Source of the DNA: a virus
Length of the DNA stretch: 36,226 bases
Virus record (IMG/VR): IMGVR_UViG_3300045988_120291
Span: 1 to 36,226 of that record
Strand: one strand, 5' to 3'
Shown here: positions 2,830 through 36,226 of the stretch, piece by piece
How the letters are laid out: every line of letters begins with the position of its first letter
Position numbering within the stretch: position 1 is the first letter of the stretch
Notes under the pieces: model-generated
What the model saw: the letters and a program-made list of their open reading frames with translations, nothing else
The model's database searches: none
Told to the model about the DNA's origin: nothing
Translations under genes and position numbers: made by a program

Positions 2830-3561
2830 TCACCTCCCTCGTCGTCGTCCGAATACGGTCATCGTTGATTTACGCTGTTCGCGCCAACCATCCGTTATGG
2901 CGTCCATTGCCGCCTCGTGAGCTATGATCGCAGCCATGGCCGCGTCAATCTTTTGATGATCTTCGGGCTTGCCCAAAATGTACATCTGCCCGGGTTTGGC
3001 CACCTTTTTCGCGTTGGCCATTGCTTCCACAGTGAGTGGGCAGCCGTCATGTTTAATGCGACCTTGCCGTAGGTCCACCTCGAAACGCCGGATCGCCGCG
3101 TACATACGCTTGATTTGGTTTGTCGGCCATTCCAGCACCTGGCATCCCTCGCTGCCGTAGTTCAGTGCCCATTCGCCGATCTCTGAATACCAGTCTTGAG
3201 GGTCGCAGTACATGCGGCGCACCTGATAGCGGTTCATCATTTCATCTACAGCCGCGTGCACTTCATCGCGCGGGATTCGGCCGCCCCATTCTTCCGGCTT
3301 CCAGATTGTCGGCCGCCGATCCGGCCCATACCGCATTGTAAATATCCGGCCGTCGCGGGTCTTCATTTTAAGGGCTGTCCAGTCGTTGTTTTCCGACCCG
3401 TCAAACCCCACGCAGATCGGCGTGCCGTCTGGTGGGTTAGGCATCCATTCCATCATAGGCCCCTTCCCATATTCCATCAGGCAGCCATGCACCAGCACTG
3501 TAGGTGATCTTGTTCCCGAAAAAGCGTTCCGCCTGATCCGGGTCTGTCTCCGACAGCTCAT
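2830..3561 (-). CDS. terL: Terminase large subunit, C-terminal nuclease part. Real coding probably begins near 3462 after a frame change.
   Basis: Contains PPDGTPICVGFDGSENNDW and a downstream acidic motif (YCDPQDW) typical of the RNase H-like terminase nuclease. The ORF overlaps the ATPase ORF by 125 nt in another frame. Confidence 0.75.
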   Translation of the reverse strand: MSCRRQTRIRRNAFSGTRSPTVLVHGCLMEYGKGPMMEWMPNPPDGTPICVGFDGSENNDWTALKMKTRDGRIFTMRYGPDRRPTIWKPEEWGGRIPRDEVHAAVDEMMNRYQVRRMYCDPQDWYSEIGEWALNYGSEGCQVLEWPTNQIKRMYAAIRRFEVDLRQGRIKHDGCPLTVEAMANAKKVAKPGQMYILGKPEDHQKIDAAMAAIIAHEAAMDAITDGWREQRKSTMTVFGRRRGR

Positions 3562-4492
3562 TAGCTTCTGCTAGCACACCGTCAATAGGCACCCACGGGC
3601 TGCCCGTGTAGACGTGCTCTAGGATTTTCCGGCGGTCTGCCTTGCGGGACCATTTAAGCCCCTTTGGTGGCGGCTCGTAGAACTTGAAAACGTCTTCCAC
3701 CGTAGACAAATAGGTTCTCTGCGCCACGCTATTTTCAGACGAATCATATGCGTTGGTGGTTTCCAATGTTCGGCCACCCATACCGGCCGCACCACGGCGT
3801 TGCGCGTCGGCAACTGCCATCATTCTATTTCTTTTGGTCCACAGGCCCGTTTCGTCCTGCAAGACGAATGAGACGGGGTTACCCACACGGCTTGTTGCTG
3901 ATGACGTCACGACGTCGATACGGTCGGCCTTGTCGCCGCCCTCACCGCCAAGAATGCGGATAAACCCCTCACGGTCTGCCAGCCGCTCACTGAGTGGCCC
4001 CAATTCGATCATTGATCGTAAGGGCCTGTAGGTGTTGTCTACCTGATCCTCCGATGTGGCCGTGAGCTGAATCAGTGGTGAAGGGTGCGGCCGCCCCATT
4101 GGTTCGCCCGGCTCATAGAAGTACTCGAAGCCGCATCCACAGCCCCAATCACTGCACTTGTAAACCTCGTCACCCTGTGCCCAGCCGTCAAATTCCGACG
4201 GCCCCACAGCCATGACAGCAACGATAGACGCGGCCGCCGGTCCTTTGCCTGTCTTCTGCGGCCCCATGATCTGAGCGCGGCGATAATGGAAAGCCTGCGA
4301 CCTGAGTGGTTCGCCTTCCCATTTCAGCCCCTCACGAATGCGGCCGAGGTTAGCGAAACACCAAAATTGCCAGTCGGACCACTCGAATGGTTCACCACGC
4401 CGATAGCCGTCTGGTATGCGGCAATGAGCGAAAACCCATGCATCCCATAGGTCGCCAAGGGTGGGAAAGTTCACAACCCATTTCGTGGCCAT
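3437..4492 (-). CDS. terL: Terminase large subunit, N-terminal ATPase part
   Basis: Walker A-like GPQKTGKGP and Walker B-like FVLQDETG. ATG at 4492 overlaps the small terminase stop (TAATG). It ends prematurely at 3437, just before the nuclease domain. Confidence 0.8.
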   Translation of the reverse strand: MATKWVVNFPTLGDLWDAWVFAHCRIPDGYRRGEPFEWSDWQFWCFANLGRIREGLKWEGEPLRSQAFHYRRAQIMGPQKTGKGPAAASIVAVMAVGPSEFDGWAQGDEVYKCSDWGCGCGFEYFYEPGEPMGRPHPSPLIQLTATSEDQVDNTYRPLRSMIELGPLSERLADREGFIRILGGEGGDKADRIDVVTSSATSRVGNPVSFVLQDETGLWTKRNRMMAVADAQRRGAAGMGGRTLETTNAYDSSENSVAQRTYLSTVEDVFKFYEPPPKGLKWSRKADRRKILEHVYTGSPWVPIDGVLAEANELSETDPDQAERFFGNKITYSAGAWLPDGIWEGAYDGMDA

Positions 4493-5812: not shown

Positions 5813-6472
5813 TCAACTCTTCACCCGTTTCAGCACGTCACCAATGTTAACGCGGCCCGCCCCATCAACACGCACATGCCCCCGCGCTATCCACTGCCGC
5901 AGCGTCCCCGGCTTCACATCAACGGCGAACAGCGTGCGCAACACATCCACAGCTACACTTCGCGCCACCCACTCAACCACAGCGTCCCCGATCTTGTCGG
6001 AACTCACGGGCGCTTGATCCATGCCTAATCGGCGCTCAAACCGGCCCACAGCCGCATCAAACCCATTAACCGCATCAATCACCCTCACATCGCCCCCCAA
6101 CCCGTCTATGAGGCTCACAGCGCCTGATTCAACAACACCGGCCGCATACTCACACATCATGCACGCCATACGCCTCACCCGGCCCGCATCACGCAGACTA
6201 GGAACCACCTCAGCCCCGATCAACGAACCGACCATCAAACCCAGCCCCTCAGCAACCGTGATCCGATCATCCACCAAACCAATGTTGCACGGCGGCCGCG
6301 AACCAAACCCACCACCATGCACGCCCCCATCAGATGAACCACTCACCCCGAACTCATTGATCAACTCACACTCACCCCACCAATCACGAACAAACTCACA
6401 ACAAGAAAGAAACCTATCAAGGGAAACATCACAAGAAGACAAAACAAAACCCTTAGAAAGAACAACCAACAA
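5813..6472 (-). CDS. Putative DNA-binding protein with a C-terminal MerR/excisionase-like HTH. Start codon uncertain.
   Basis: The C-terminus VDVKPGTLRQWIARGHVRVDGAGRVNIGDVLK looks like an HTH. The ORF-track start is a TTG directly after an in-frame stop. The coding strand is extremely G+T-rich. Confidence 0.4.
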   Translation of the reverse strand: MLVVLSKGFVLSSCDVSLDRFLSCCEFVRDWWGECELINEFGVSGSSDGGVHGGGFGSRPPCNIGLVDDRITVAEGLGLMVGSLIGAEVVPSLRDAGRVRRMACMMCEYAAGVVESGAVSLIDGLGGDVRVIDAVNGFDAAVGRFERRLGMDQAPVSSDKIGDAVVEWVARSVAVDVLRTLFAVDVKPGTLRQWIARGHVRVDGAGRVNIGDVLKRVKS

Positions 6473-6540
6473 CTACAGGTAGTAGCTTACCAAAATCTCT
6501 ATTCCAGTAAAGAACATTGAAGGTAGTAATAAAGGTCTCC

Positions 6541-6565
6541 CCGACCCGACCCGACCCGACCCGAC
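6541..6565. repeat. Pentanucleotide tandem repeat (CCGAC)x5
   Basis: ccgacccgacccgacccgacccgac read directly, flanked by partial units. Confidence 0.9.
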
Positions 6566-6816
6566 CCGGTGGCAATGAAATAACCCACCCCTCCACCTTG
6601 GACATGTCCAGGCCACGTTACCCAACATGCTACCTGGTTTTGCGCACACCAAACCGGCGACCACCAAAAGGACAGTTTTCACCCAATCCACGCAAACGCC
6701 GAAAAAAAATCGCAAGCTACGCCACCATCTCGGCAACGCAACTTAAAAAAGACAAAGCTTCGCCAAATATAATCAGCAAAGCTTTTCAACAAAAGCGTTC
6801 GCCATGAGCTAAACCA

Positions 6817-7026
6817 CTACCGGCCGGTACTAGTCGCCTCACCACAGATCAGCCGCACTACACGACCCCGGCCACCGGCTACACGACGCCAAGCCACAAA
6901 AGACCCGGCGCGCCAATGGAGGGCACCCTTTTCCGCAGCCACCTGGCAAGGCCACGGACACGGAGACGCCGCACCGCGTTGGATACGCGGCCGCTCATTT
7001 CGTGCGTTAGTTTCCAATATTGTCAT
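6817..7026 (-). CDS. Hypothetical small Arg-rich protein (weak call)
   Basis: 69-aa ORF whose ATG overlaps the upstream stop as ATGA, suggesting translational coupling. No recognisable motif. Confidence 0.3.
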   Translation of the reverse strand: MTILETNARNERPRIQRGAASPCPWPCQVAAEKGALHWRAGSFVAWRRVAGGRGRVVRLICGEATSTGR

Positions 7027-8132
7027 CGCCTTTTTCGTTCGCTCATGCTGGTTTGCTGAGTCCGGCCATATGCGCGGCCACCATGGGTGTTCCCTAGATT
7101 CCTCGGGTTTACTGCGGTCGTGTTCCCGCCACCGGCAGAACCTACACCCCTCCTCGGTTTTACGCTTCCCATACGGGGGCCACCGTCAGAGTTGGTTTTA
7201 CGCTGCGTTTTTCCGGCGCGCCGTTGCCTTCCGTTTGCCTGCCTTCCGCTTTCGCCACGGTCTTTATCAGGATCAGACGCCACCATATTAAACCGCTGGC
7301 TGCGGCTAGGTGACTCATGGTCGGCTTTCTTTCTTCTAGTAGTTACCTTTTTCGTGTGCGGGGTTTCCCAGGCGTGGTTTCGCGGGGAATCCTCTATCAA
7401 TGCGCAATCCTTTTTATCGTCGAGGGGATTAGGCACATTGAGTTTTCGGGCCACACGGCTCGTTACGCTAGGCCATTTGCTCAATTGCTCTACCAGACCC
7501 GGGCCGTAAACCGGCTGGACCGGCGGGTCTAGGAGTGGGAACTCCTCATCAGGGTTAACCGAAGCGGCACGGCCTTCATTGCACGCAGAACATGCAACAA
7601 CGAAAGTGGCCGGTGTCGTCGGCGAGTCTATATCTCGATGGTCGAAAGTCTGTCCTCGATCAGACCGGGTATCGCCCCATACGACATCGACGCCGCAATA
7701 CCTACACTGGTCCCCATCCCTAAACAGAACAGGAACCACAAGAGAAGCCTTACGGCGATCGTTCTTCCTTTTATCTGCCTTCTTCTTATCATCCGACCTA
7801 ATCAGGTGCACAAAATTGACGTCATCCAGCAGCATGTAGGTTTTAACATCCCCATCATCACTCTGACCATGGGGGAGCTTTGGGGTGAGCACCCCAATAG
7901 CAATTAGGTCGTTAATAACCTCTTGATGACCCGCAATGCCGACAGTCTGAATAACCATACCTTTGGTCACCTCATAATCTGTCCAAGCCACTGCGGAAGA
8001 AATAAACAAGGCCGTAGTAACGCCCTTGAGTTTGATCACCAGAGACTCATCTCCTCTAGTCGCGGCCAATTCAGCCGCCCACATCCAAACCTTGTGGTCA
8101 TTGAAAGTATCGGAAAATCGTGCCCAGGACAT
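7023..8132 (-). CDS. HNH-motif protein with a long basic, low-complexity C-terminal tail. A replication or recombination role is possible.
   Basis: 369-aa ORF with RDGDQCRYCG ... FDHRDI ... ACSACN (HNH-like). The C-terminal ~120 aa are rich in R/K/G/S. Confidence 0.65.
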   Translation of the reverse strand: MSWARFSDTFNDHKVWMWAAELAATRGDESLVIKLKGVTTALFISSAVAWTDYEVTKGMVIQTVGIAGHQEVINDLIAIGVLTPKLPHGQSDDGDVKTYMLLDDVNFVHLIRSDDKKKADKRKNDRRKASLVVPVLFRDGDQCRYCGVDVVWGDTRSDRGQTFDHRDIDSPTTPATFVVACSACNEGRAASVNPDEEFPLLDPPVQPVYGPGLVEQLSKWPSVTSRVARKLNVPNPLDDKKDCALIEDSPRNHAWETPHTKKVTTRRKKADHESPSRSQRFNMVASDPDKDRGESGRQANGRQRRAGKTQRKTNSDGGPRMGSVKPRRGVGSAGGGNTTAVNPRNLGNTHGGRAYGRTQQTSMSERKRR

Positions 8133-8292
8133 CTATGACCTCACCGAACCGGGGGCTAGAAGCTGATACATGATTCCTCCATACTGGACAACAAGGATTC
8201 TGGCTATGTAGGGGACTTTCCCCTAACTAGTTGGCAATCATGGACATCACGTTACCTCGCCGTAGCACGGTAGCGCAACCTCCATGGCAGCC

Positions 8293-8326
8293 AACCTACA
8301 CAACACTTGCGTGGCCACGCAAGTGT
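8293..8326 (-). promoter_or_regulatory. Sigma70-like promoter overlapped by a perfect 24-bp palindrome
   Basis: Minus strand: -35 TTGCGT (8322..8317), 18-nt spacer, -10 TAGGTT (8298..8293). The palindrome ACACTTGCGTGGCCACGCAAGTGT spans 8303..8326. A G8 tract lies just upstream (8328..8335). Confidence 0.5.
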
Positions 8327-8346
8327 GCCCCCCCCTGAACACCCCC

Positions 8347-10322: not shown

Positions 10323-10733
10323 TTAAATCCAATCTCCTACGATGCCTGTACAGTCGATACTTTCAGCTTGTTTTATAATTTCTTCCATTGCTCTTTCGCT
10401 CAGGACTGCAAATAATTCTTTCCCCTCGATTTGCCATTCACCGTGATTTCTTTGGCTTACTTTGTGCATTGACCCGAAGATCATTACACCTATAGTGTCT
10501 TTTCCGGTCTTCCAGAAAATATCCGACAGCGCTTCCAAAATGCTTACTTCCCAGAATCTTTTTCGCTCTAGGAGAAGTTTGCCCGCAAAGTTACGGTGCT
10601 CTTCCACACCCATCATCCGAAAATCAGTCATGTGCTGTTCGGTCATGCCCTGCCGTGCGACAAGCTTCACGCCGCCACCTACGTCATCCAGGACGACCCG
10701 GAACTGATCTGGTCTTTCTTCACTCTTCCACAT
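10323..10733 (-). CDS. Hypothetical protein
   Basis: 136-aa ORF packed tightly in the early minus-strand operon. Confidence 0.6.
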   Translation of the reverse strand: MWKSEERPDQFRVVLDDVGGGVKLVARQGMTEQHMTDFRMMGVEEHRNFAGKLLLERKRFWEVSILEALSDIFWKTGKDTIGVMIFGSMHKVSQRNHGEWQIEGKELFAVLSERAMEEIIKQAESIDCTGIVGDWI

Positions 10734-11127
10734 ATGGTTTCACATCCACAATGAAATCATCGAACCAGAACCCACGATTTTCGCCGCTCTTGAACACCAT
10801 TTCAACCCTATCACCTTTAAGTTTCAATACGTCACCTTCACGCGTTACGCTCACCTCACCGAAATTAACATTTTCCATCTTCACAGACTCAATGCCTGTT
10901 TCAACAATGAACAGATCAGCAACATCTATTGCTCGCATTTCCTGAGCAAATATATTGTAGTTAGGCGACTCATCCAGGCTTGTTGCATCAAGCACAGTTT
11001 GCATCAAAATGAACCCGCGATACCCATTAACTAGTTTTTCTTTCGCGAAAACATCCACGCCTTTAGCCCGAAAAACCAGATACAATCTCATTTCCATTAC
11101 CTCCATTGCCTTACTTTCTTCTTGCAT
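10720..11127 (-). CDS. Hypothetical protein. Likely start is the ATG at 11091, after SD GGAGG.
   Basis: 135-aa ORF in the track. An internal ATG at 11091 has GGAGG 8 nt upstream and avoids the overlap with the upstream gene. Confidence 0.6.
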   Translation of the reverse strand: MQEESKAMEVMEMRLYLVFRAKGVDVFAKEKLVNGYRGFILMQTVLDATSLDESPNYNIFAQEMRAIDVADLFIVETGIESVKMENVNFGEVSVTREGDVLKLKGDRVEMVFKSGENRGFWFDDFIVDVKPYVEE

Positions 11128-11369: not shown

Positions 11370-11607
11370 GAATCATTTCCCTTAGCGCCTTACTTGAGTC
11401 GTAGATACATGAGAATACGACCGCTTCCACCACTCTAGCCATTCCACGGAAACTACTTCTCATTACTCGCGCATAGGTTTCGTCTTTTTCTCGATTTACA
11501 AATTCCTCTGTCACCTCTTCTACGAACAGGGCAACCTGATTCGCAAAATCAGCATCTCTTTCAATTTTCCCATCAAGCTTCCAACCGAGCTTTTCCTCTA
11601 AGCTCAT
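11341..11607 (-). CDS. Hypothetical protein, first gene of the early minus-strand operon. Start revised to the ATG at 11607.
   Basis: The track ORF begins at 11691 inside a G9 tract and the promoter. The ATG at 11607 (MSLEEKLGW...) is preceded by AGATTGGAGAT 8 nt upstream, the same leader seen in other genes. Confidence 0.55.
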   Translation of the reverse strand: MSLEEKLGWKLDGKIERDADFANQVALFVEEVTEEFVNREKDETYARVMRSSFRGMARVVEAVVFSCIYDSSKALREMIHEVDQRNVG

Positions 11608-11647
11608 TTCCGATCTCCAATCTTTCCAATCGATTTGGACAATGCAC

Positions 11648-11676
11648 ACTTTATCCATCACGGCATGGCCACGCAA
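11648..11676 (-). promoter_or_regulatory. Sigma70-like early promoter carrying half of the palindrome
   Basis: Minus strand: TTGCGT (11676..11671), 17-nt spacer, TAAAGT (11653..11648). A G9 tract lies upstream (11681..11689). It shares GCTTGCGTGGCCA with the 8303..8326 site. Confidence 0.5.
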
Positions 11677-11759: not shown

Positions 11760-11788
11760 TTTACAAATCTTCCGCGTTTTTCTAAATT
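11760..11788 (+). promoter_or_regulatory. Sigma70-like promoter for the plus-strand island
   Basis: TTTACA (11760..11765), 17-nt spacer, TAAATT (11783..11788). It is divergent from the early minus-strand promoter. Confidence 0.45.
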
Positions 11789-11830
11789 GACACTTGTCGC
11801 CAAACGGTGGCGGCAGATTGGAAAAGCGAT

Positions 11831-11980
11831 ATGTTCATCTTTGACTTACTAGCCCCCCTGTGTGGCGGCGTCGGCTTCACATCCATTGTCCTAATGAGTG
11901 CCGCCGCAATCTACAAAACTGTTACGGATTACGGCAACTTGACCTACACGGAAGGAACTCACCCTGATGATCACATTTAA
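11831..11980 (+). CDS. Small hydrophobic protein (49 aa) with a predicted single transmembrane helix. It is not in the ORF track.
   Basis: My translation: MFIFDLLAPLCGGVGFTSIVLMSAAAIYKTVTDYGNLTYTEGTHPDDHI, stop TAA at 11978..11980. CAGATTGGA lies 8 nt upstream of the ATG. It overlaps the next ATG by 14 nt. Confidence 0.45.
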   Translation: MFIFDLLAPLCGGVGFTSIVLMSAAAIYKTVTDYGNLTYTEGTHPDDHI

Positions 11981-12398
11981 CCTGCGCGGACTTCCTCAGC
12001 CCATACGGTCCACCGGCCTCATCAGCGCACTAGTCGAGCACTATAAACGAATCATAGCGGTAGAGAAGCACCCCGTATCGCCGAATATCCTTGTCATTGA
12101 CCCGGCAACCGGAACTGTGATCGGCGAAGTGCAAAACCTCACTGGCGAAGACGAAACCAACTCTGATCCTGATTACGCAGCTTTTCGCATTCGGCAAGCG
12201 CACACGCAAGAACGCAAGCTACAGATGGAACTGCGAGCAGCGAAAGCGCACAAGAAGCAGCTCATCCGCGAAGCCGTAAGCCTTAAACTGCTCACCTACC
12301 GCAACATCGCTGATCTTCTTCACCAAACGCCGCAGAACATCCGCAGCATTGCCCAACCCTCACCCTCAGAACTAGGAACGACCCATGCAAAATCTTGA
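11967..12398 (+). CDS. Hypothetical protein with a C-terminal HTH-like segment
   Basis: 143-aa ORF. LLTYRNIADLLHQTPQNIRSIAQ resembles an HTH. SD GGAAGGAA upstream. Confidence 0.6.
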   Translation: MITFNLRGLPQPIRSTGLISALVEHYKRIIAVEKHPVSPNILVIDPATGTVIGEVQNLTGEDETNSDPDYAAFRIRQAHTQERKLQMELRAAKAHKKQLIREAVSLKLLTYRNIADLLHQTPQNIRSIAQPSPSELGTTHAKS

Positions 12399-12831
12399 CA
12401 GCGCTAAATTCGTCGAGTCCCTTCTCAATGAAGAAGTCTTCCAGCTTCCTACTTCCGCAGACGATGAATTTCAAAAGCTAGTTGATTCTGGCAAGAAGCT
12501 AACCGAATCCCTCGCGGAAAGCCTCAACTTACAAACCCTTGCCGATCTCAAAGAATCAAACCCCCATAACCCCGTGTACATGGCGTGCCCACTAAACCCC
12601 TCAATGCCAGTGATGCACAGCGAAACGCAAAGCTACGCGCTTTCACTGACACTGAATAAGCGCACCGCTGGAAACACGCCGGGAATTGACGTCTACACCC
12701 TGTCTGCATACCCCGTATGCACCAGTCTAACCGGCTGCTACGTGCGCCACATAGTCGGATTCCCGAGCCTGCTTAACCAAATCGCACGTCTCGACGTCTT
12801 CGGCATCGATAGGTTTATAGATTCGCTCTAG
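12385..12831 (+). CDS. Hypothetical protein
   Basis: 148-aa ORF with a 14-nt overlap on the upstream gene and protein-like composition. Confidence 0.6.
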   Translation: MQNLDSAKFVESLLNEEVFQLPTSADDEFQKLVDSGKKLTESLAESLNLQTLADLKESNPHNPVYMACPLNPSMPVMHSETQSYALSLTLNKRTAGNTPGIDVYTLSAYPVCTSLTGCYVRHIVGFPSLLNQIARLDVFGIDRFIDSL

Positions 12832-12838
12832 CCGCTCC

Positions 12839-12986
12839 GACCTGCAACAATAAGCGCGCATCACCCCCAAATAAGGGCAACACACAACCAATGCATTGCG
12901 TGGCCACGCAACGGGTGATACAGTGAAAGACGTCCACAACAAAGGGGAACAAACCCCACACCAGATTGGAGATAAGCAATGAGCAC
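12839..12986 (+). repeat. Repeat A, copy 1 (partner at 15177..15320): an intergenic promoter/operator/leader module
   Basis: Hand alignment with copy 2 gives 12 mismatches and one 4-nt indel over about 144 positions. The repeat runs into the first codons (ATGAGCAC). Confidence 0.9.
12896..12924 (+). promoter_or_regulatory. Extended -10 promoter overlapped by a perfect 16-bp palindrome
   Basis: TTGCGT (12896..12901), 17-nt spacer, TGATACAGT with -10 TACAGT (12919..12924). Palindrome TTGCGTGGCCACGCAA at 12896..12911. Confidence 0.55.
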
Positions 12987-13281
12987 ACCCTACACATTCA
13001 CCCACCCAAGCCCCGGCGTTTTCGAGGCACACTACAGTGATCAAACGTTCGCAATCCTGGAACGCCATACCTGCGTTTCCTCAGTCGCCGGAACCGTTGA
13101 TAACCGCGAACTTTGGGTTATCGTCGATCCGCTCCAGGAGGCCAACATCAACACCCGCGACCTGAACTGCATCTACCACATCTGCGAAGGATTCCCAACC
13201 TACAAAGCCGCCGCAGCAAAAGCATGGGAAAACTACAACACGTACGGCGTCGCCCTTCCTATCGGTATTGCCGACTGCTGA
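12979..13281 (+). CDS. Hypothetical small protein (100 aa)
   Basis: The ORF follows repeat A. CAGATTGGAGAT lies 8 nt upstream of the ATG. Confidence 0.6.
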   Translation: MSTPYTFTHPSPGVFEAHYSDQTFAILERHTCVSSVAGTVDNRELWVIVDPLQEANINTRDLNCIYHICEGFPTYKAAAAKAWENYNTYGVALPIGIADC

Positions 13282-13284
13282 GAA

Positions 13285-13360
13285 CAAGCGCCCGGGGTGA
13301 GCGCACAATCACCCCCCACCCGGCGCGCGGCCACCGGAACAACGGCCGCAGATTGGATTT
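13285..13360 (+). repeat. Repeat B, copy 1 (partner at 15655..15731): an intercistronic double-hairpin element
   Basis: The first 31 nt are identical to copy 2 and the rest is near-identical with small indels. Hairpins: GGGGTGA/TCACCCC (13294..13315) and GCGGCC/GGCCGC (13327..13349). Confidence 0.9.
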
Positions 13361-13364
13361 GGTT

Positions 13365-13829
13365 ATGTATTCTTTGATTCCTGTTCCTGAGATGATTGTC
13401 CAGTCTGTTGACAGTCTTGATTGGTCTGCGGAGGTTCCGCGTGAATATGAGCCGCCTGTGTTTGGTTCGTGCGGGGCGTATAACACGGTTTTGACCGGCG
13501 ACGAGTTCTATTTGATCATGGACCGTTTGGCGATTTCGCCGCTTGATTTGTCACGGGCTACCGGCTTTCCTCAGACCAGCATCCTGTTTTGGAGGCGTTC
13601 TAAGCAAGTTCCTATGAATGTCGCGCTTACTGTTCGGCATCTACAGAAGCTCACTCACGGCGTCATCAATGCGCTTGATCACGTCACCGGGTGTTCATTC
13701 CACAACTACGGCTACCGCAGGATCGGCGATTTCTGGCTACCGGAATCGTGGTGGCGCATGTGCCTGGCCCGCAACTCTGAGCGCACGATCATGAAGGATT
13801 TTCACTACTCACATAAAAGGAGTCGCTAA
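13365..13829 (+). CDS. Hypothetical protein with an XRE-like HTH
   Basis: 154 aa from the ATG at 13365, after CAGATTGGA. LTGDEFYLIMDRLAISPLDLSRATGFPQTSILFWRRSKQVP resembles an XRE-family HTH. Confidence 0.6.
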   Translation: MYSLIPVPEMIVQSVDSLDWSAEVPREYEPPVFGSCGAYNTVLTGDEFYLIMDRLAISPLDLSRATGFPQTSILFWRRSKQVPMNVALTVRHLQKLTHGVINALDHVTGCSFHNYGYRRIGDFWLPESWWRMCLARNSERTIMKDFHYSHKRSR

Positions 13830-14546
13830 ATGTATACGGCATCTTTCCTGGAGTCTTGTGTGGCTCCCCATACCAGCGTGTACGATTCTTTCTCTGAAAC
13901 TTCCAAGCGTGTCATCTTCGGAAATGCTATCTCTATCGAGTTTTTCCCGCTAGATAAGCTTTTCTCTGTGGCCTTGGAAAATGATTCGATTGACACCTAT
14001 CGTGTCAATTTCCCTGATGATCGGCGGCGGCGTGATGAAGCGGCAGCACTCATTTCCTGGTTCGCTCATGTTGCGAATAAAACCAAGTCCCCCATTACCG
14101 ACAGTCTTCTGCATGGAACCATTCTGCCTAGCTGGTCTTCACAGTTGGCCCCGTTTGATCTTGACAATTTCCACATGCGCGGCGATTCAGTCTCATTGCT
14201 TTCTAGCCCTGCTGATTTCTTGCAATGTGGCTTATCGCATTTATGCGATGTGAGCATCAGCCTGTGTACTGATTCCCCACACGCCGCGATGGCTTCTTAT
14301 GGCGATTACAGCCTTATTCTTTCCTTCGATATAAGGAAATGCATTCTCACCAACGGCTACTACATTGGCAAGTTCTCTATCGAGGTTCGTGGCCCCGGTG
14401 CGTCCCCCATCGTGAAAGAAACAGGGCACTTTGTCACCCCATTCCACATCCTCAGTGATATTTGGGATTTCCGACACTTTGCCATTGAGCGCCTCCCCAT
14501 AACCAAAGAAGCGTGGAAAACGTACCGCGCAAACACAGAAGGATAA
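13830..14546 (+). CDS. Hypothetical protein
   Basis: 238-aa ORF. Its ATG directly abuts the upstream TAA. Confidence 0.6.
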   Translation: MYTASFLESCVAPHTSVYDSFSETSKRVIFGNAISIEFFPLDKLFSVALENDSIDTYRVNFPDDRRRRDEAAALISWFAHVANKTKSPITDSLLHGTILPSWSSQLAPFDLDNFHMRGDSVSLLSSPADFLQCGLSHLCDVSISLCTDSPHAAMASYGDYSLILSFDIRKCILTNGYYIGKFSIEVRGPGASPIVKETGHFVTPFHILSDIWDFRHFAIERLPITKEAWKTYRANTEG

Positions 14547-14551
14547 CTCCC

Positions 14552-15178
14552 ATGCCCTCCATGTTTTCACCCCTGTACCATCTGCGCTGTGTCGCTGAAA
14601 AACCGGCCCCCTACACGCGCACTGCCCATTGGTGGCGACGCTCGCTAGATATTCGCTTCTACTCATTTTTTGTTGACCGCAATACGCATTCCAGCTTTGC
14701 TACGGTCAACGGTCACACAATCACGATAGGCGACCACCCCAACCTATTCGCCGCCGGGTTCGACCCGTTCAAGAACGACATCAACTATGCCGTGTACACA
14801 ACTATCTGCGGGTTCTACACCTTCGAGCACGGCGGCATCAAGGACAAGGCCACAGCAAAGGCATACCTGCGCGAGACAACCCCATTCATCCTTGACCCTG
14901 AACCAAACCACCCTAACCGGCGATGGGATTTGATGCTCAAACAGCACCATATCGGGTTTGACCGTCTCACTGATGAAGGTATCAAGTTCCGCATCATTGA
15001 CAACTACCCGAACTCCACAAACAACCCCGATCCAATCAAGTTCAAGCGCGCCGTTGACTTGTGGGACATGCGCAAGCAAATCGCCGAATTTGAGACAGAA
15101 CGGCACCGCCTTCCCTACCCGCTCCCCTACGACTCCGCAATTCACCCTAGCCACGTCCTTGAATACATGCCGCGCTGA
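14552..15178 (+). CDS. Hypothetical protein. Start revised to the ATG at 14552.
   Basis: The track ORF starts at 14513 inside the upstream gene. The ATG at 14552 has GAAGGA upstream and gives 208 aa. Confidence 0.6.
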   Translation: MPSMFSPLYHLRCVAEKPAPYTRTAHWWRRSLDIRFYSFFVDRNTHSSFATVNGHTITIGDHPNLFAAGFDPFKNDINYAVYTTICGFYTFEHGGIKDKATAKAYLRETTPFILDPEPNHPNRRWDLMLKQHHIGFDRLTDEGIKFRIIDNYPNSTNNPDPIKFKRAVDLWDMRKQIAEFETERHRLPYPLPYDSAIHPSHVLEYMPR

Positions 15179-15320
15179 CCTGCAACAACAAGCACACACC
15201 ACCCCTAAATAAGGGCAACACACAACCAATGCGTTGCGTGGCCACACAACGGGTGATACAGTGAAACATGTCCACAAGGGGAACAAACCCCACACCAGAT
15301 TGGAGATTGGTAATGAGCAC
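15177..15320 (+). repeat. Repeat A, copy 2
   Basis: See copy 1. It begins within the stop codon of the upstream gene. Confidence 0.9.
15234..15262 (+). promoter_or_regulatory. Extended -10 promoter with the palindrome carrying one mismatch
   Basis: TTGCGT (15234..15239), 17-nt spacer, TGATACAGT (-10 at 15257..15262). Operator TTGCGTGGCCACACAA at 15234..15249. Confidence 0.55.
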
Positions 15321-15648
15321 CATCAACCTAGACACCCTCAATTGGGAATCCACCCCCGCAGAATGGGGCCTAACCTTCGGCGAAACCGCTAACCTGCCCG
15401 GCAGTGACCAGCGCGGCGGAAACGACATGATCCTTGACTTCGACCTTGACGGCACCCGCAAGGCACGCCTGGCAATCGATCCCGCACTTGTCGGCATGAA
15501 GACCCCACAGGGCATGGCTTTCAGTGATGACACGGCACACTGGCCCGTCCTGGATCGCGCATTCGGCCGCAAGCAATGGCAAGGCTTCCTCAGCCGCAAG
15601 ACCTCCGAAATGCTCAGCGACCTAGCCGATTGGGAACCAGAAGACTAA
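15313..15648 (+). CDS. Hypothetical small acidic protein (111 aa). Start revised to 15313.
   Basis: The ATG at 15313 is preceded by CAGATTGGAGAT at 8 nt. It shares the MST start with the copy-1 gene but has no other visible similarity to it. Confidence 0.6.
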   Translation: MSTINLDTLNWESTPAEWGLTFGETANLPGSDQRGGNDMILDFDLDGTRKARLAIDPALVGMKTPQGMAFSDDTAHWPVLDRAFGRKQWQGFLSRKTSEMLSDLADWEPED

Positions 15649-15654
15649 CCGCAT

Positions 15655-15731
15655 CAAGCGCCCGGGGTGAGCGCACAATCACCCCACAAACCCGGCGCGC
15701 GGCCACCGGACAACGGCCGCAGATTGGATTT
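15655..15731 (+). repeat. Repeat B, copy 2
   Basis: See copy 1. Confidence 0.9.
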
Positions 15732-15737
15732 CTTGTC

Positions 15738-16199
15738 ATGCACCTTCCTAGTGAGTCTTTTTCCACCCCCAAGATTAGGCTTTGCGACACCAACACCCCG
15801 CATGGGATTGTCCCCTCTGGACCTGATTCGCTTTATGACACGATTGAGCAGATGGTGTCTTCTGCGGGCACGATTCGGCCGGCGTTTTTGACGGCACATG
15901 AGCAGATCGCCGCGAACTATGGGCATGTTCTGGCATTGTTTTACGTTGTTCAGATTGTGCGTAACAAAGTTGCTGCTGATTCTCCTAACCCCAACGATCT
16001 GATTGCACTGAATGAGCTTTCCCGCGATTACTCAGCGCGCGCTAGGGGTTTGCACACTGCACTAGTTTCCCTCTACGGTCTTGTTGATGTTGACTTGGTT
16101 TCGCTGGCTGATGACGTTGCCGAATCCGCTCATCACATCGCTACTGAGCGCGCGGAATGGCTTTTCAAGAAGCCCGGTTTTTCCATCTCTGATCTGTAG
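15738..16199 (+). CDS. Hypothetical protein (153 aa). Start revised to 15738.
   Basis: ATG after repeat B and CAGATTGGATTT. The ORF ends 25 nt before the bidirectional terminator. Confidence 0.6.
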   Translation: MHLPSESFSTPKIRLCDTNTPHGIVPSGPDSLYDTIEQMVSSAGTIRPAFLTAHEQIAANYGHVLALFYVVQIVRNKVAADSPNPNDLIALNELSRDYSARARGLHTALVSLYGLVDVDLVSLADDVAESAHHIATERAEWLFKKPGFSISDL

Positions 16200-16224
16200 A
16201 AACACCCCTGAAACGCAAAAATAA

Positions 16225-16243
16225 CCCCCACCATTGGTGGGGG
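16225..16243. terminator. Bidirectional intrinsic terminator at the convergent junction
   Basis: CCCCCACC / GGTGGGGG stem flanked by AAAAATAA upstream and CTTTCTTATT downstream. It lies between the plus-strand island and the minus-strand lysis genes. Confidence 0.7.
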
Positions 16244-16260
16244 CTTTCTTATTGCCGTGG

Positions 16261-18634: not shown

Positions 18635-21600
18635 TTATGGCTTATATACCGGTGGGTTCCTGTAGAAGCCCACCTGTTCTACCCAGTCTAGTGTTTCGAT
18701 GCGTATTCCCCTATCCACGCGACCATCCCACGGGTTGTTGTTGTCGTTTTCAGACCCTAACACGCCGGTGAATGTATCGTTTGTTATGTACATGTGGCCT
18801 ACGTTTGATACCCCTGCTTTCGTGAGGCATTTCCTTGCTGTTTCCACATCCGGGCAATTGTGGATTGCGTGCCAGAATCGTAGCGACATACGGCCCCGAT
18901 AATGCGCGGGCATTACTGTTTCTTTCAAATACTTCTCTGCGGATTGCTCAAATGACATGAGCGTATCGGCTGCGCCTAGCATAGCCTCAATCGTGTTCCC
19001 GCCCGGGTTTGCGACCACATAGAACGCGCTTCCATATTTCTCACGCAGCTTGGAATACAGCTCAGTATAGAAACTGACTTTCGCGCGCTGTTCTTCTGAC
19101 CAGCCGTTAATTGCCTCATCAAGAAATACGCCGTGAATATTGTTGCGCGTGTAGTACTCTATGTACTGGTCAATTTCCTTGATGATGTCTGCCTGCAAAC
19201 GCCCTGCCCATTGCGTTTTCACATAGGCGATATTGACGAATCCGCGCATCGTCGTGAGCGTAAGCGTATCGGCAAATTCCTGCTCTTTACGTGTACCCAC
19301 ACCTGATTTCGGATTAGCAATTTTCGGCCCTGAGATCATTGGGTTGTATGCGTAGTCTGCCCAGTTCTCATCGTTATTTTCAAGCAGCTTCCAGTAATTC
19401 GGGTAGTTGTATGATACTTCCGAATACCGACGCCCTTTATATCCCCACAATGCGAACGGGTGAATATCCACGCCCGGAATTGGCATGTCGCGTGTACGCA
19501 GTTTTCCCAGATACTTCATTGAGTCCAGGCTTACAGCTTGCACTTTCTTCATCATTTCATGCCATGATTCCTTTGTGATAATCACATCAGGATTATCAGG
19601 GTTGAAATTGCCGTTTTTAATCAGCTCTTTCTTAATCACCCCGTCCATTGGAATATTCATGATGAACGAGTTTCCACCTACCGCACTGCGCTGCGTCCCG
19701 TTTTTCAGAACTACTTTCACCATGTGTGCACAGTCGGCCTGCGGGTCATCCTGCGCGTAGTAATTTGCTTGCGCTTGGCAACCCCTTGGGTCCTCAAAAG
19801 CAACCGCCGCCCAGTCAGCCGGGTTTGCTGCAAGACGGGTGTTATTCTCAATACCCACATTCCAAATGTTATTAGCATTGATAATCGTACCCGGCCCCGA
19901 ACACGCAATGCCATGATTCCACGTTGAACCAATTGTATTACCGGTAACAACCGAATACGCGCCGATTGAAATTCCATTGTCTTTCGACACAGGGAACGAA
20001 TTACCCACAACTACAGTGCGATGACAGTCAATCGTGAAACCACATGGCTCAAACGCAATGGTCGCATTCTCAGCCATGAGCACCGAGTTATTCAGCACCT
20101 GCGTATCCACCGGCGCACCCTGCTTTGTCTGCGTCCCGCCGATCCCCATACCACATGACACGCCACGAATACGCAGGCCGATGATCTGATTGCGCTTTGA
20201 ATTGTCCTTCACTAGGCAACCAAAGCCAGAAGCGCCCTCCTGCACGGTGTTCTGTTTCAGGCCCGCGCCGTCAACAACGCAGTTGATCAGACGGTTATCG
20301 TTCGATCCGTTGCCCGTCGGCTTGTCTTTCAGCGCGAAACCCTGGACCAGAAAACCGTTGCCGCCTGATCGACGTACCTTCACTTCCGACACGTCCACGA
20401 AATCAGCGTTTGTCAATTGCAACGCCGTTGCTGGCTTGTCACCCGTATTCCATTGCATATCAAGAACAAAATCAGCAATGTACGCATCGCGGAAACCCGC
20501 GCCGGAAGTACAATGCATTCCGTTCTTCCCCAAACCTGGTTTCATATTCAGGATCGTTGCGCGCCCCTTGCCCTGGATCACCTTGCCGCTTGCCTTATCC
20601 AAGATGATCGTATCGGAAACGTCCCATTCACCGGCAGGCAAGAAAATCACTTTCTTTTTCGGGTCATTAATAGCCGCCTGCAGATCAGCTGTAATGTCCG
20701 TTTTCCCCTGCGGAAGAATGTTAATCACAGCATCCTCACCGGCCGACGCGATAGCCTCCGCCACCTGCCGTTTCACGGCCGCAGTGATCTGCTCATTCGC
20801 CGACTCAGCTAGCAGTTTCGCCACCAGCTCCTTAGTCTTAGCCTCATCCACCGGCCCCGGCGACGTCGGCAAGTTCTCTGTTTGCAGCCGCTCAATTACA
20901 CGGCGCGTTAGCGCCTCCATATCCACATCGCGGATATTCCCCATTTGTTTCAGCTGTTCAGCCAATTCTGTCGCTACCTGCGCGGGAATTTTTTTCAGCT
21001 CTGCCTGAACATCTTCCTTAGCTTTCGTGGCTTTCTGCGCCTCAGATTCAGCGGTTGATGCAGCGGTTGACGCCTGCGATGCGGCCGTTTTCGCTTGCTC
21101 TACAGCGGCAGTGCTTGTCGCCACTACCCCGCTGAGATCGCTCTTTGCGGTCGTTGCCGCCGTCTGCACCTCAGACAGTTGTCGTTTCGCTTGTTCCGCC
21201 GCGTCGGTCGCTTCCGCAGACGCCGCAAGCGCGGTTGTGGCGCGCTCTCGCGCCCATTCCGCCTGTGACGCCGCCGAATCTGCCGATAATGCGGCGTTCG
21301 ATGCTTTCTCTTCCACAGTCGCAGCCGCGGAGATTGCTTTGTCTGCCTTTTCCGATGCTGTGCCCGCTGCCGTAGCCGCAGTGTCGGCTGCAGCCTTAGC
21401 AGCTGCGGCGGCATCTTTCGCTGCCGCCGTCTCTGTGCTCGCATCCCCAATGAGCGCCTGCACCTGCGCGGCCACACGCTGCACTTCCGACTCCGCTAGT
21501 TCCTGCTCCGTAAGTGCCGCACGCGCCGCGTTCTCTAGGCTTATATCGGCCTTCCCGACCACGATAGGGATTGTCTCTAGACTTGACCCCCGTATTGTCC

Positions 21601-35870: not shown

Positions 35871-36226
35871 CTATTCTCGGCCCATATTCATATTGCGGGC
35901 AATTGCTTCGGCGAATGAGCGCGGCTTTGCCGCAGCGTCCCCACCCTTCCCCTGAGTGGGGTCTTGCGGGGCACGATCAAACCCCAATGCCTTCGACAAT
36001 GCTTCTGCATCAGCGCGGCGTTCTTCCGGCGTCTCACCCATGATCCGGTGCGCCATTGTTTCAGGAATCTTGAACTCCTTGCACAATTCGCCGCGCTCAT
36101 GTTTCAGTTTCATTTCGGCGTTTTCTGCCATGAGTTTATCAACGCGGGCTTTCCACTCTTGTTCAGCGACGGCCGCACGTTCTTCCTCTGACATTTTAGA
36201 TTTTTCGTATTCATCCAGCTTTTTCT
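35871..36226 (-). CDS. Scaffolding protein, 3' (C-terminal) part. The ORF is open to the window end and continues from 290..1.
   Basis: The track ORF 35871..36194 starts at an internal Met. The frame stays open through 36226 and joins the 290..1 segment across the 55-bp overlap. Confidence 0.6.
   Translation of the reverse strand, partial: KKLDEYEKSKMSEEERAAVAEQEWKARVDKLMAENAEMKLKHERGELCKEFKIPETMAHRIMGETPEERRADAEALSKALGFDRAPQDPTQGKGGDAAAKPRSFAEAIARNMNMGRE

Follow-up and report, generated by a model that had tools for sequence, protein, structure and literature searches.

In the virus record IMGVR_UViG_3300045988_120291 (IMG/VR; 36,226 nt, in the following called the window), a block of ~4.4 kb carries nine plus-strand open reading frames (ORFs) over 11831-16199 together with two duplicated regulatory elements, repeat A and repeat B. 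We interpret this island, with middling confidence, as the rightward early or accessory region of an integrase-less, probably virulent actinobacterial siphovirus, controlled by operator-based feedback of the kind known for Cro and for the anti-CRISPR-associated (Aca) regulators. The same arrangement occurs twice: repeat A, a gene for a small acidic protein (p100 or p111), repeat B and a gene for a protein of 154 or 153 amino acids (aa) (p154 or p153). A first-pass annotation had proposed this duplicated architecture; its order is exact, and both repeats are kept in every close relative.

In the circuit that we propose, host RNA polymerase would fire the repeat A promoters after infection and large amounts of p100 and p111 would be made. 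The first A-driven operon would also yield p154, a putative helix-turn-helix (HTH) protein of the XRE type. Dimers of p154 would then bind the palindromes and shut off both island operons along with the leftward early promoter, a Cro-like or Aca-like negative feedback. Repeat B would act in cis on the mRNA to set the output of the second cistron, possibly recognised by a phage protein, and the small acidic proteins would act on the host, in anti-defence or in take-over.

The nine ORFs are real genes. Compared with L001 and L002, two relatives in which the entire block is present and 84-90% identical in DNA, all nine showed ratios of non-synonymous to synonymous changes (pN/pS) of 0.05-0.37, with substitutions mostly at third codon positions. 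Indels were in frame with one exception: the p100 gene of L002, whose product has 98 aa, shows a gap of 5 nt at its 3′ end. The same nine genes were called in further related contigs by the independent gene caller of the public collection. We corrected three start codons (p208 to 14552, p111 to 15313 and p153 to 15738) from the position of an upstream motif, described below, and from homologue alignments. More than 12 related genomes of this phage type share the nine genes, the gene order and the presence of both repeats; they come from ENA, Logan and IMG/VR assemblies and measure ~33.9-36.4 kb when near full length. Based on the predicted promoters, we infer three transcription units, p49-p143-p148, p100-p154-p238-p208 and p111-p153.

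None of the nine proteins has a match in Pfam, PHROGs, PADLOC or NCBIfam. Searching 50,697 records of isolated phages yielded nothing, neither with the concatenated island proteins (tblastn) nor with the island DNA (blastn), and PDB sequence searches of p143, p148, p238, p208 and p153 were all empty. The block thus stands, as first described, as an opposite-strand island of nine ORFans. Homology to ordinary replication or lysogeny genes, which would have spoken against that description, is absent from the four databases, while homologues of p111 and p100 and p154-like proteins do occur in the lysogeny block of temperate relatives (see below). That the island is the only plus-strand unit holds as far as tested; at ~5.8-6.5 kb the coding strand is uncertain, with minus favoured. 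The 49-aa peptide p49, noticed earlier as a membrane peptide, is indeed hydrophobic by its grand average of hydropathy (GRAVY; Table 1).

From an alignment of 16 copies in eight genomes, we delineated the anatomy of repeat A, whose two copies in the window are ~86-90% identical to each other. Its conserved blocks begin, from 5′ to 3′, with AAATAAGGGCAACACACAACCAATGC, a palindrome TTGCGTGGCCAC(G/A)CAA, the left half of which is the -35 hexamer, and, past a 17-nt spacer, the -10 hexamer with TG before it. Then follow GTCCACAAC, a small leader hairpin GGGGaacaaaCCCC, CCAGATTGGAGAT and ATGAGCA. The -10 alleles TACAGT, TAAGCT and TACGGT found among the 16 copies all retain TAnnnT, and the 16-bp palindrome overlaps the -35 in both copies. 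Repeat A therefore looks like a sigma-70/SigA-type promoter, predicted as TTGCGT-17-TAnnnT, combined with operator, leader and ribosome-binding site. Transcripts are predicted to start near 12931 (copy 1) and 15269 (copy 2), next to the positions 12930 and 15268 guessed before. Paralogous copies within one genome diverge by 0.08-0.16, orthologous copies between genomes by 0.09-0.13, and the -10 alleles are spread mosaically between the copies. Since the -10 alleles are mosaic and the paralogous divergence is no greater than the orthologous one, we conclude that the copies are under constraint, undergo homogenisation, or both.

The 5′ part of repeat A (12855-12886 and 15193-15224) can in addition form a 14-pair, G-U-rich hairpin in minus-strand RNA only; with the T-rich tail behind it, this hairpin might terminate antisense transcription that reads through from the late operon. 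This hairpin is pairable in 96% of cells over 12 copies, and shuffled controls were equally good, so that the figure is evidence neither way.

The palindrome, TTGCGTGGCCACGCAA, has four matches in the window against 0.42 expected, and it is also found outside the island in promoter-like sites that face leftward (Table 1). The copy at 8.3 kb is invariant in relatives, where both of its flanks vary. Its presence in the island promoters as well as in leftward promoter-like sites points to a general early-gene operator. As judged from its distribution, the palindrome probably serves several early promoters in common as an operator, with p154 as the most plausible protein to bind it. Downstream of the 8.3-kb site (8132-8340, minus strand), we noticed a leader hairpin, GGGGaaagtCCCC, resembling that of repeat A, and then a 12-codon upstream ORF just before the HNH gene.

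Two island proteins, p143 and p154, had been described as HTH-like. For p154, this is backed by weak profile evidence and by HTH homologues: the protein is 25% identical over 130 aa to proteins of a ~51-kb temperate relative (L008) with Pfam HTH_19 and HTH_3 matches, with terminal motifs in common, and its family profile weakly matched PDB entries that were all XRE/Cro-C1-type regulators (C.BclI, P22 C2 and HigA; E 0.036-0.15). There are only three true relatives of p154 among 1.84 billion representatives. The call did not hold for p143, which has no Pfam, PHROG or PDB match. In codon usage, p154, p153 and a minus-strand 219-aa ORF (5813-6472) share an odd bias, with third-position A at 0.05-0.06 and T at 0.32-0.40. 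The bias affects both genes downstream of repeat B and is absent from their neighbours; p238 is intermediate.

Repeat B starts 5-8 nt past the stop codon of p100 or p111 and provides the second cistron with its ribosome-binding site. The two copies (73 nt) differ in a short linker and one loop base only. RNAfold predicted a GGGGUGA...UCACCCC stem nested in a GCGCC/GGCGC stem, plus a second hairpin, GCGGCC...GGCCGC. Among six distinct genomes, 7 of 144 columns in repeat B were variable (5%), compared with 63 of 206 third codon positions of p100 and p111 (31%; Fisher p = 3.5e-10). The loops are as conserved as the stems. Length variation, of 1-2 nt, is confined to the linker CC(A)CCACCC and indicates that repeat B is non-coding. 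A coding linker or frameshift fusion, conceivable as the frames of p154 and p153 are open through repeat B, was rejected because the linker length varies and there is no slippery site.

No match to repeat B was found in Rfam, and a covariance model built from it detected nothing in distant relatives. A 22-mer of the B hairpin was absent from 185,579 species genomes, and in metagenomes it was found in this phage type only. Most likely, repeat B acts on the mRNA, as a translational operator, as a processing or stability element, or as an attenuator. The sequence GCGCGGCCAC inside repeat B is one base off the operator core GCGTGGCCAC, a likeness that we treat as a lead, not a finding. The degenerate 10-mer GCGYGGCCAC has 11 matches in the window against 0.44 expected, among them the operators and repeat B; the remaining four of these 11, at 2102, 7072, 21466 and 26368 (plus strand), lie inside minus-strand genes and may be further binding sites or an effect of composition. 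Taken further, repeat B could be a new kind of cis-element that p154 reads as RNA or DNA, giving two-level feedback (transcription and translation) over p100 and p111 as anti-defence or host-take-over proteins, kept by virulent as well as temperate phages of oral Mycobacteriales. As a whole, we consider this extended version rather unlikely.

Alternatively, repeat B could be a cis antitermination RNA of the put or nut type, which makes polymerase resistant to termination. With their two copies, their size, their two stems and their position behind a small first cistron, the B elements fit putL and putR of phage HK022, two related elements of ~70 nt with two stems each that lie downstream of two early promoters (PMC9378689), and the invariance of loops and stems alike would suit a surface read by polymerase or by a protein. 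Against this, there is no convincing terminator to override downstream within either operon, and the only strong one (16223-16245) should halt transcription ahead of the convergent lysis genes. Repeat B also runs into the ribosome-binding site, which argues for translation control; it shows no covariation, no sequence similarity to put and no Rfam match, relatives have no such element, and the host here is an actinobacterium. We therefore regard antitermination as very improbable.

The 3′ end of repeat B belongs to a wider class of sites. The motif AGATTGGA has nine matches in the window against 0.88 expected, eight of which sit 7-9 nt upstream of an ATG in gene direction. Seven of these eight fall in the early and island region, and several are preceded by a small hairpin. 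In repeat A, the motif appears extended as AGATTGGA(G), a Shine-Dalgarno sequence; AGATTGGA presumably represents much of the complement of the 3′ end of the 16S rRNA. Cluster K mycobacteriophages possess start-associated sequences (SAS) and extended SAS (ESAS), with the consensus GGGATAGGAGCCC and 17-bp inverted repeats, of unknown function (PMC3203893). By analogy, both are short asymmetric motifs with a Shine-Dalgarno core just upstream of ATG, in gene direction and mostly at non-structural genes, and both are often preceded by an inverted repeat, for which the 3′ half of repeat B may be compared. The island motif, however, is AGATTGGA and not GGGATAGGAGCCC, its inverted repeats are different and it has eight sites only, whereas repeat B is longer (73 nt, two hairpins), near-invariant and present in two copies.

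The paired genes of the two duplicated units encode unrelated proteins: neither p100 and p111 nor p154 and p153 showed similarity to each other by BLASTP or hhalign, as had been noted by eye. The p111 family comprises 33 protein clusters and the p100 family 10, all unnamed. Their members come nearly all from metagenome assemblies, with one of each on a single NCBI assembly contig, and a p111 profile scan of the 185,579 species genomes found no relative. The AlphaFold2 model of p111 has four strands followed by three helices (predicted local distance difference test score, pLDDT, 77; predicted template modelling score 0.70). It matched no PDB fold and, in BFVD, a single entry, an uncharacterised protein from an uncultured siphovirus. 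For p100 the model is poor (pLDDT 62.6) and, at this low confidence, had no PDB fold match. Since p100 and p111 are kept across virulent and temperate relatives, always with a promoter of their own, they are plausible host-directed or anti-defence proteins.

Among published designs, their arrangement comes closest to the anti-CRISPR (Acr)-Aca systems, in which one Aca regulator has operators at several neighbouring anti-defence operons, with RNA motifs between genes within the operons (PMC13551039). Shared features (PMC13551039, PMC9410906) are a strong early promoter with an inverted repeat, here predicted, small acidic proteins of no known family in first position, an HTH gene, here a putative one, in one of two neighbouring operons with a common operator, and a conserved structured element, here with a predicted fold, on an intergenic ribosome-binding site. 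In contrast to those systems, none of the island proteins is homologous to a known Acr, repeat B stands between the small gene and the putative HTH gene, and the operator also occurs in promoter-like sites outside the island. The Acr/Aca-like layout put forward in the first-pass annotation is therefore sound at the level of architecture; membership cannot be claimed, because homology to known Acr proteins is missing and the operator is not private to the island.

The units are bicistronic, their promoter holds a palindromic operator and their first product is acidic. This would also suit toxin-antitoxin-like pairs, in which each unit joins an acidic antitoxin to a 153-154-aa partner and is autoregulated at the palindrome. 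The pairs are not conserved, however: in temperate phages, p111 and p100 adjoin each other and not p153 or p154. Moreover, p154 is a putative HTH protein and not toxin-like, and PADLOC, Pfam and NCBIfam gave no toxin or antitoxin match, which leaves this explanation scarcely credible.

The repeats may further be compared with lambdoid morons and with cassettes of the promoter-early stem-loop (PeSL) type. On this model, repeats A and B could be mobile PeSL or moron-boundary cassettes, serving as recombination anchors that shuffle ORFan cargo between phages. Like the PeSLs of T4-type phages (PMC2839356, PMC4122927), they are repeated composite regulatory cassettes around small ORFans in a non-essential-looking region, with a promoter and a stem-loop flanking the ORFans (PMC2839356). 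The paralogous divergence of repeat A does not exceed the orthologous one, -10 alleles are swapped between the copies, and one allele cassette, that of p153, is bounded by the invariant second copy of repeat B and the conserved terminator. Unlike at PeSL cassettes, neither cargo variation nor indels were found at the repeats: gene content and order are identical in the more than 12 genomes, no deletion or replacement between A copies or between B copies was seen, and the mosaic breakpoints, near 12600, 13800 and 14500 in three genomes compared, lie away from the repeats. Repeat B does not occur outside this phage type and has no U-tract, each repeat has two copies as opposed to dozens of PeSLs per genome, and promoter and structured element stand on opposite sides of the gene instead of being fused. 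Mobile cassettes are thus improbable. The earlier suggestion that the repeats delimit variable cargo failed on the same evidence of fixed gene order and distant breakpoints, and the island is a fixed, conserved part of the lineage, not a set of swappable cassettes.

Variation is found at the level of alleles. The genes for p148, p238 and p153 and a leftward gene for a 135-aa protein (10720-11127, minus strand; 52-95% identity) are the most variable ones and occur as sharply different alleles (52-85% identical) in genomes that are otherwise 90-100% identical around them, a pattern typical of exchange or of diversification under host pressure. A diversity-generating retroelement was considered and rejected, given that no reverse transcriptase turned up and that the repeat copies differ in a manner not specific to A residues.

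The island was said to lie where temperate phages usually keep their integrase, and comparison with temperate relatives bore this out. In two distant groups (~35-38 kb and ~51 kb), the post-lysis opposite-strand block contains a tyrosine integrase (Pfam E = 2.8e-27 and 3.6e-16). Both groups have, next to the integrase and on its strand, adjacent homologues of p111 and p100, in the order p111, then p100. The block of the ~51-kb group further encodes two HTH proteins (Pfam HTH_3 and HTH_19) that align with p154; p154-like genes were found in this group alone. Because p111, p100 and p154-like homologues reside in the temperate lysogeny block, the island appears to derive from such a block rather than from an unrelated insertion, and it looks like a re-modelled lysogeny or accessory module. 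In this lineage, the p111-p100 unit would have been split, and each half would have been given a copy of the promoter cassette and of repeat B. Position, strand and the presence of p111, p100 and an XRE-type HTH gene, putative in the island, are common to both arrangements; unlike the temperate module, the island has no integrase (among the ORFs scanned) and no CI/Cro homologues, and holds p111 and p100 in two separately promoted units. Six of the nine island genes are confined to this lineage. The ~51-kb group has a different palindrome, duplicated in the block with one HTH gene between the copies, and the leader hairpin of p111 keeps its AACAA loop between groups with a different stem.

Several further elements were observed in the temperate relatives. 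Between p111 and p100 stands a hairpin of strong conservation that is capped by a UUCG tetraloop (CCGGGGGCuucgGCCCCUGG); GGATTAAGGA and the start codon of p100 come next (L008 15750-15800, minus strand; same sequence in L014 and L016-L020). In L008, the duplicated promoter-palindrome, CTACTAGACATATGTCGCGTAG, is located at 14438-14481 and 16188-16231, and a separate 34-bp palindrome (19095-19128) marks a divergent switch region beside CI/Cro-like HTH genes.

Temperate actinobacteriophages are known to carry prophage-expressed defence genes in the region between lysis and early genes. The island might be a module for immunity or for the control of lysogeny in an integrase-less phage, either temperate or in a carrier state, in which p154 or p143 as repressor holds the leftward lytic promoters off via the palindrome, and p49, p100 and p111 serve exclusion or defence from the resident phage. 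The island has the position and strand of the lysogeny module, p111, p100 and p154-like genes adjoin the integrase in temperate relatives, the palindrome is present in the leftward promoter-like sites, and p49 is a membrane peptide of a type common among exclusion proteins. The first-pass annotation had recognised no integrase, and likewise none was found in domain scans of the main ORFs, with those at ~24-36 kb judged structural by position and not scanned. Neither a partition gene nor a homologue of the relatives' CI/Cro-like pair was present among the ORFs scanned in the complete genome, and in the divergent gap of the window (88-aa leftward gene and p49/p143) there was no HTH match and no similarity to the relatives' CI-like proteins. 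The related contigs that we looked up are all free, genome-sized or shorter, with differing start points; none is embedded in host DNA, and no looked-up p100-family contig exceeds 50 kb. Neither a p111 relative nor a copy of the B hairpin was found in the 185,579 species genomes. Finally, the strong promoters of the island carry the same operator and would be repressed along with the lytic ones. On balance, we regard an immunity module as unlikely.

Several points weigh against an early region under Cro/Aca-like feedback, the reading that we prefer. A temperate or carrier-state life without an integrase may still apply to this phage. The promoters, the operator and the transcript starts are predicted at consensus level. 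As the -35 hexamer lies within the palindrome, the conservation of the palindrome may partly reflect promoter function alone, for which reason the shared-operator reading is kept conditional, and the copy at 11661-11676 retains one half-site only. The HTH call for p154 is weak (best PDB E = 0.036, no Pfam match of its own, distant homologues near threshold). The predicted hairpins of repeat B have no covariation support, as the element is too invariant for such a test, and three of four singleton substitutions break pairs; the fold is therefore only predicted. Lastly, PADLOC and the PDB and BFVD fold searches gave no tie between p100 or p111 and any known anti-defence protein.

Table 1 Features of the island and of its surroundings in the window; promoter, operator and hairpin entries are predictions.
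Feature	Position	Strand	Description
Minus-strand genes		-	Portal, large terminase, DNA methylase, HNH endonuclease, 2116-aa tape-measure-sized ORF, M23+GH25 lysin
Leftward promoter-like site	8293..8322	-	Perfect palindrome copy at 8307-8322; upstream of HNH gene; outside island
Leftward early promoter-like site	11647..11676	-	TTGCGT-17-TAAAGT; half palindrome, GGCCACGCAA on + strand; inverted match to repeat A; outside island
Candidate promoter	11760..11788	+	TTTACA-17-TAAATT, for p49-p143-p148; consensus scan, 9/12 matches
p49	11831-11980	+	Small hydrophobic membrane-type peptide; GRAVY +0.52; pN/pS <=0.05; AGATTGGA 8 nt before ATG
p143	11967-12398	+	Basic, pI 9.6; pN/pS 0.07-0.14
p148	12385-12831	+	Acidic; alleles 73-85% identical between genomes
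Repeat A copy 1	12831-12985	+	Ends in first codons of p100
Repeat A copy 1, parts	12896-12970	+	Palindrome/-35 12896-12911; -10 TACAGT 12919-12924, TG before; leader hairpin 12944-12957; AGATTGGA 12963-12970
p100	12979-13281	+	Small acidic protein, pI 4.9
Repeat B copy 1	13286-13358	+	GC-rich, two predicted hairpins; ends in AGATTGGA 7 nt before p154 start
p154	13365-13829	+	XRE-type HTH protein (weak profile support); candidate operator-binding regulator
p238	13830-14546	+	Hypervariable alleles, 64-94% identity
p208	14552-15178	+	ORF without known-family match
Repeat A copy 2	15169-15321	+	Ends in first codons of p111
Repeat A copy 2, parts	15234-15304	+	Palindrome/-35 15234-15249; -10 15257-15262; AGATTGGA 15297-15304
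p111	15313-15648	+	Small acidic protein, pI 4.4
Repeat B copy 2	15656-15729	+	Ends in AGATTGGA 9 nt before p153 start
p153	15738-16199	+	Hypervariable alleles, 65-98% identity; 153- or 172-aa forms
Terminator-like two-way hairpin	16223..16245	both	Separates island from convergent lysis genes

The window ends are identical over 55 nt (1-55 = 36172-36226), and the window is therefore a complete circular assembly of ~36.17 kb. Based on its minus-strand gene set, on a portal protein 44% identical to that of Arthrobacter phage Hum25 and on a lysin with best matches in phages of Mycobacterium, Corynebacterium and Gordonia, we assign it to an uncultivated siphovirus of an actinobacterium. The host is probably a member of the Mycobacteriales, with the lysin similarity only loosely indicating this order, for instance Corynebacterium. 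No tRNA gene was found in the window. At the borders of the island, the candidate promoter of the first transcription unit sits in a 224-bp divergent gap between the start of a leftward gene at 11607 and p49, and the terminator-like hairpin at the other end is kept at 97-100% in relatives.

Elsewhere on the minus strand, two overlapping ORFs make up the large terminase gene (2830-4492). One (3437-4492) encodes the ATPase part and matches the whole of a 347-aa PHROG; the other (2830-3561), for the nuclease part, shares 125 nt with it. The gene may truly be split, or else a frameshift or a mistake in the assembly may lie behind the two ORFs. In a gene-poor stretch of ~550 nt (6473-7022), GC and AT skew are extreme. 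The stretch, in which genomes that are otherwise close diverge, contains a (CCCGA)x5.8 tandem repeat (6540-6568) as well as a minus-strand promoter-like site, TTGCGT-N16-TAGCTT (6741-6714); it could serve as an origin, in packaging or in regulation.

If the feedback model is true, the island represents a compact, testable circuit built from a single operator, a single HTH protein and an invariant element between cistrons. The phage lineage that carries it is frequent in metagenomes, where several contig names hint at samples of the Human Microbiome Project, and lacks a representative in culture. To our knowledge, few anti-defence or host-directed functions have been described in Actinomycetota; p111 and p100, kept by temperate and integrase-less relatives alike, are good candidates for new ones. 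The comparison with these relatives suggests how a lysogeny-associated accessory unit could be split and re-promoted by copying a regulatory cassette. Repeat B is a clean case of a non-coding element that outdoes the surrounding proteins in conservation, and it could help to explain the start-associated elements of actinobacteriophages. Near-invariant repeat B and the two conserved families of small proteins are the parts most worth experiment.

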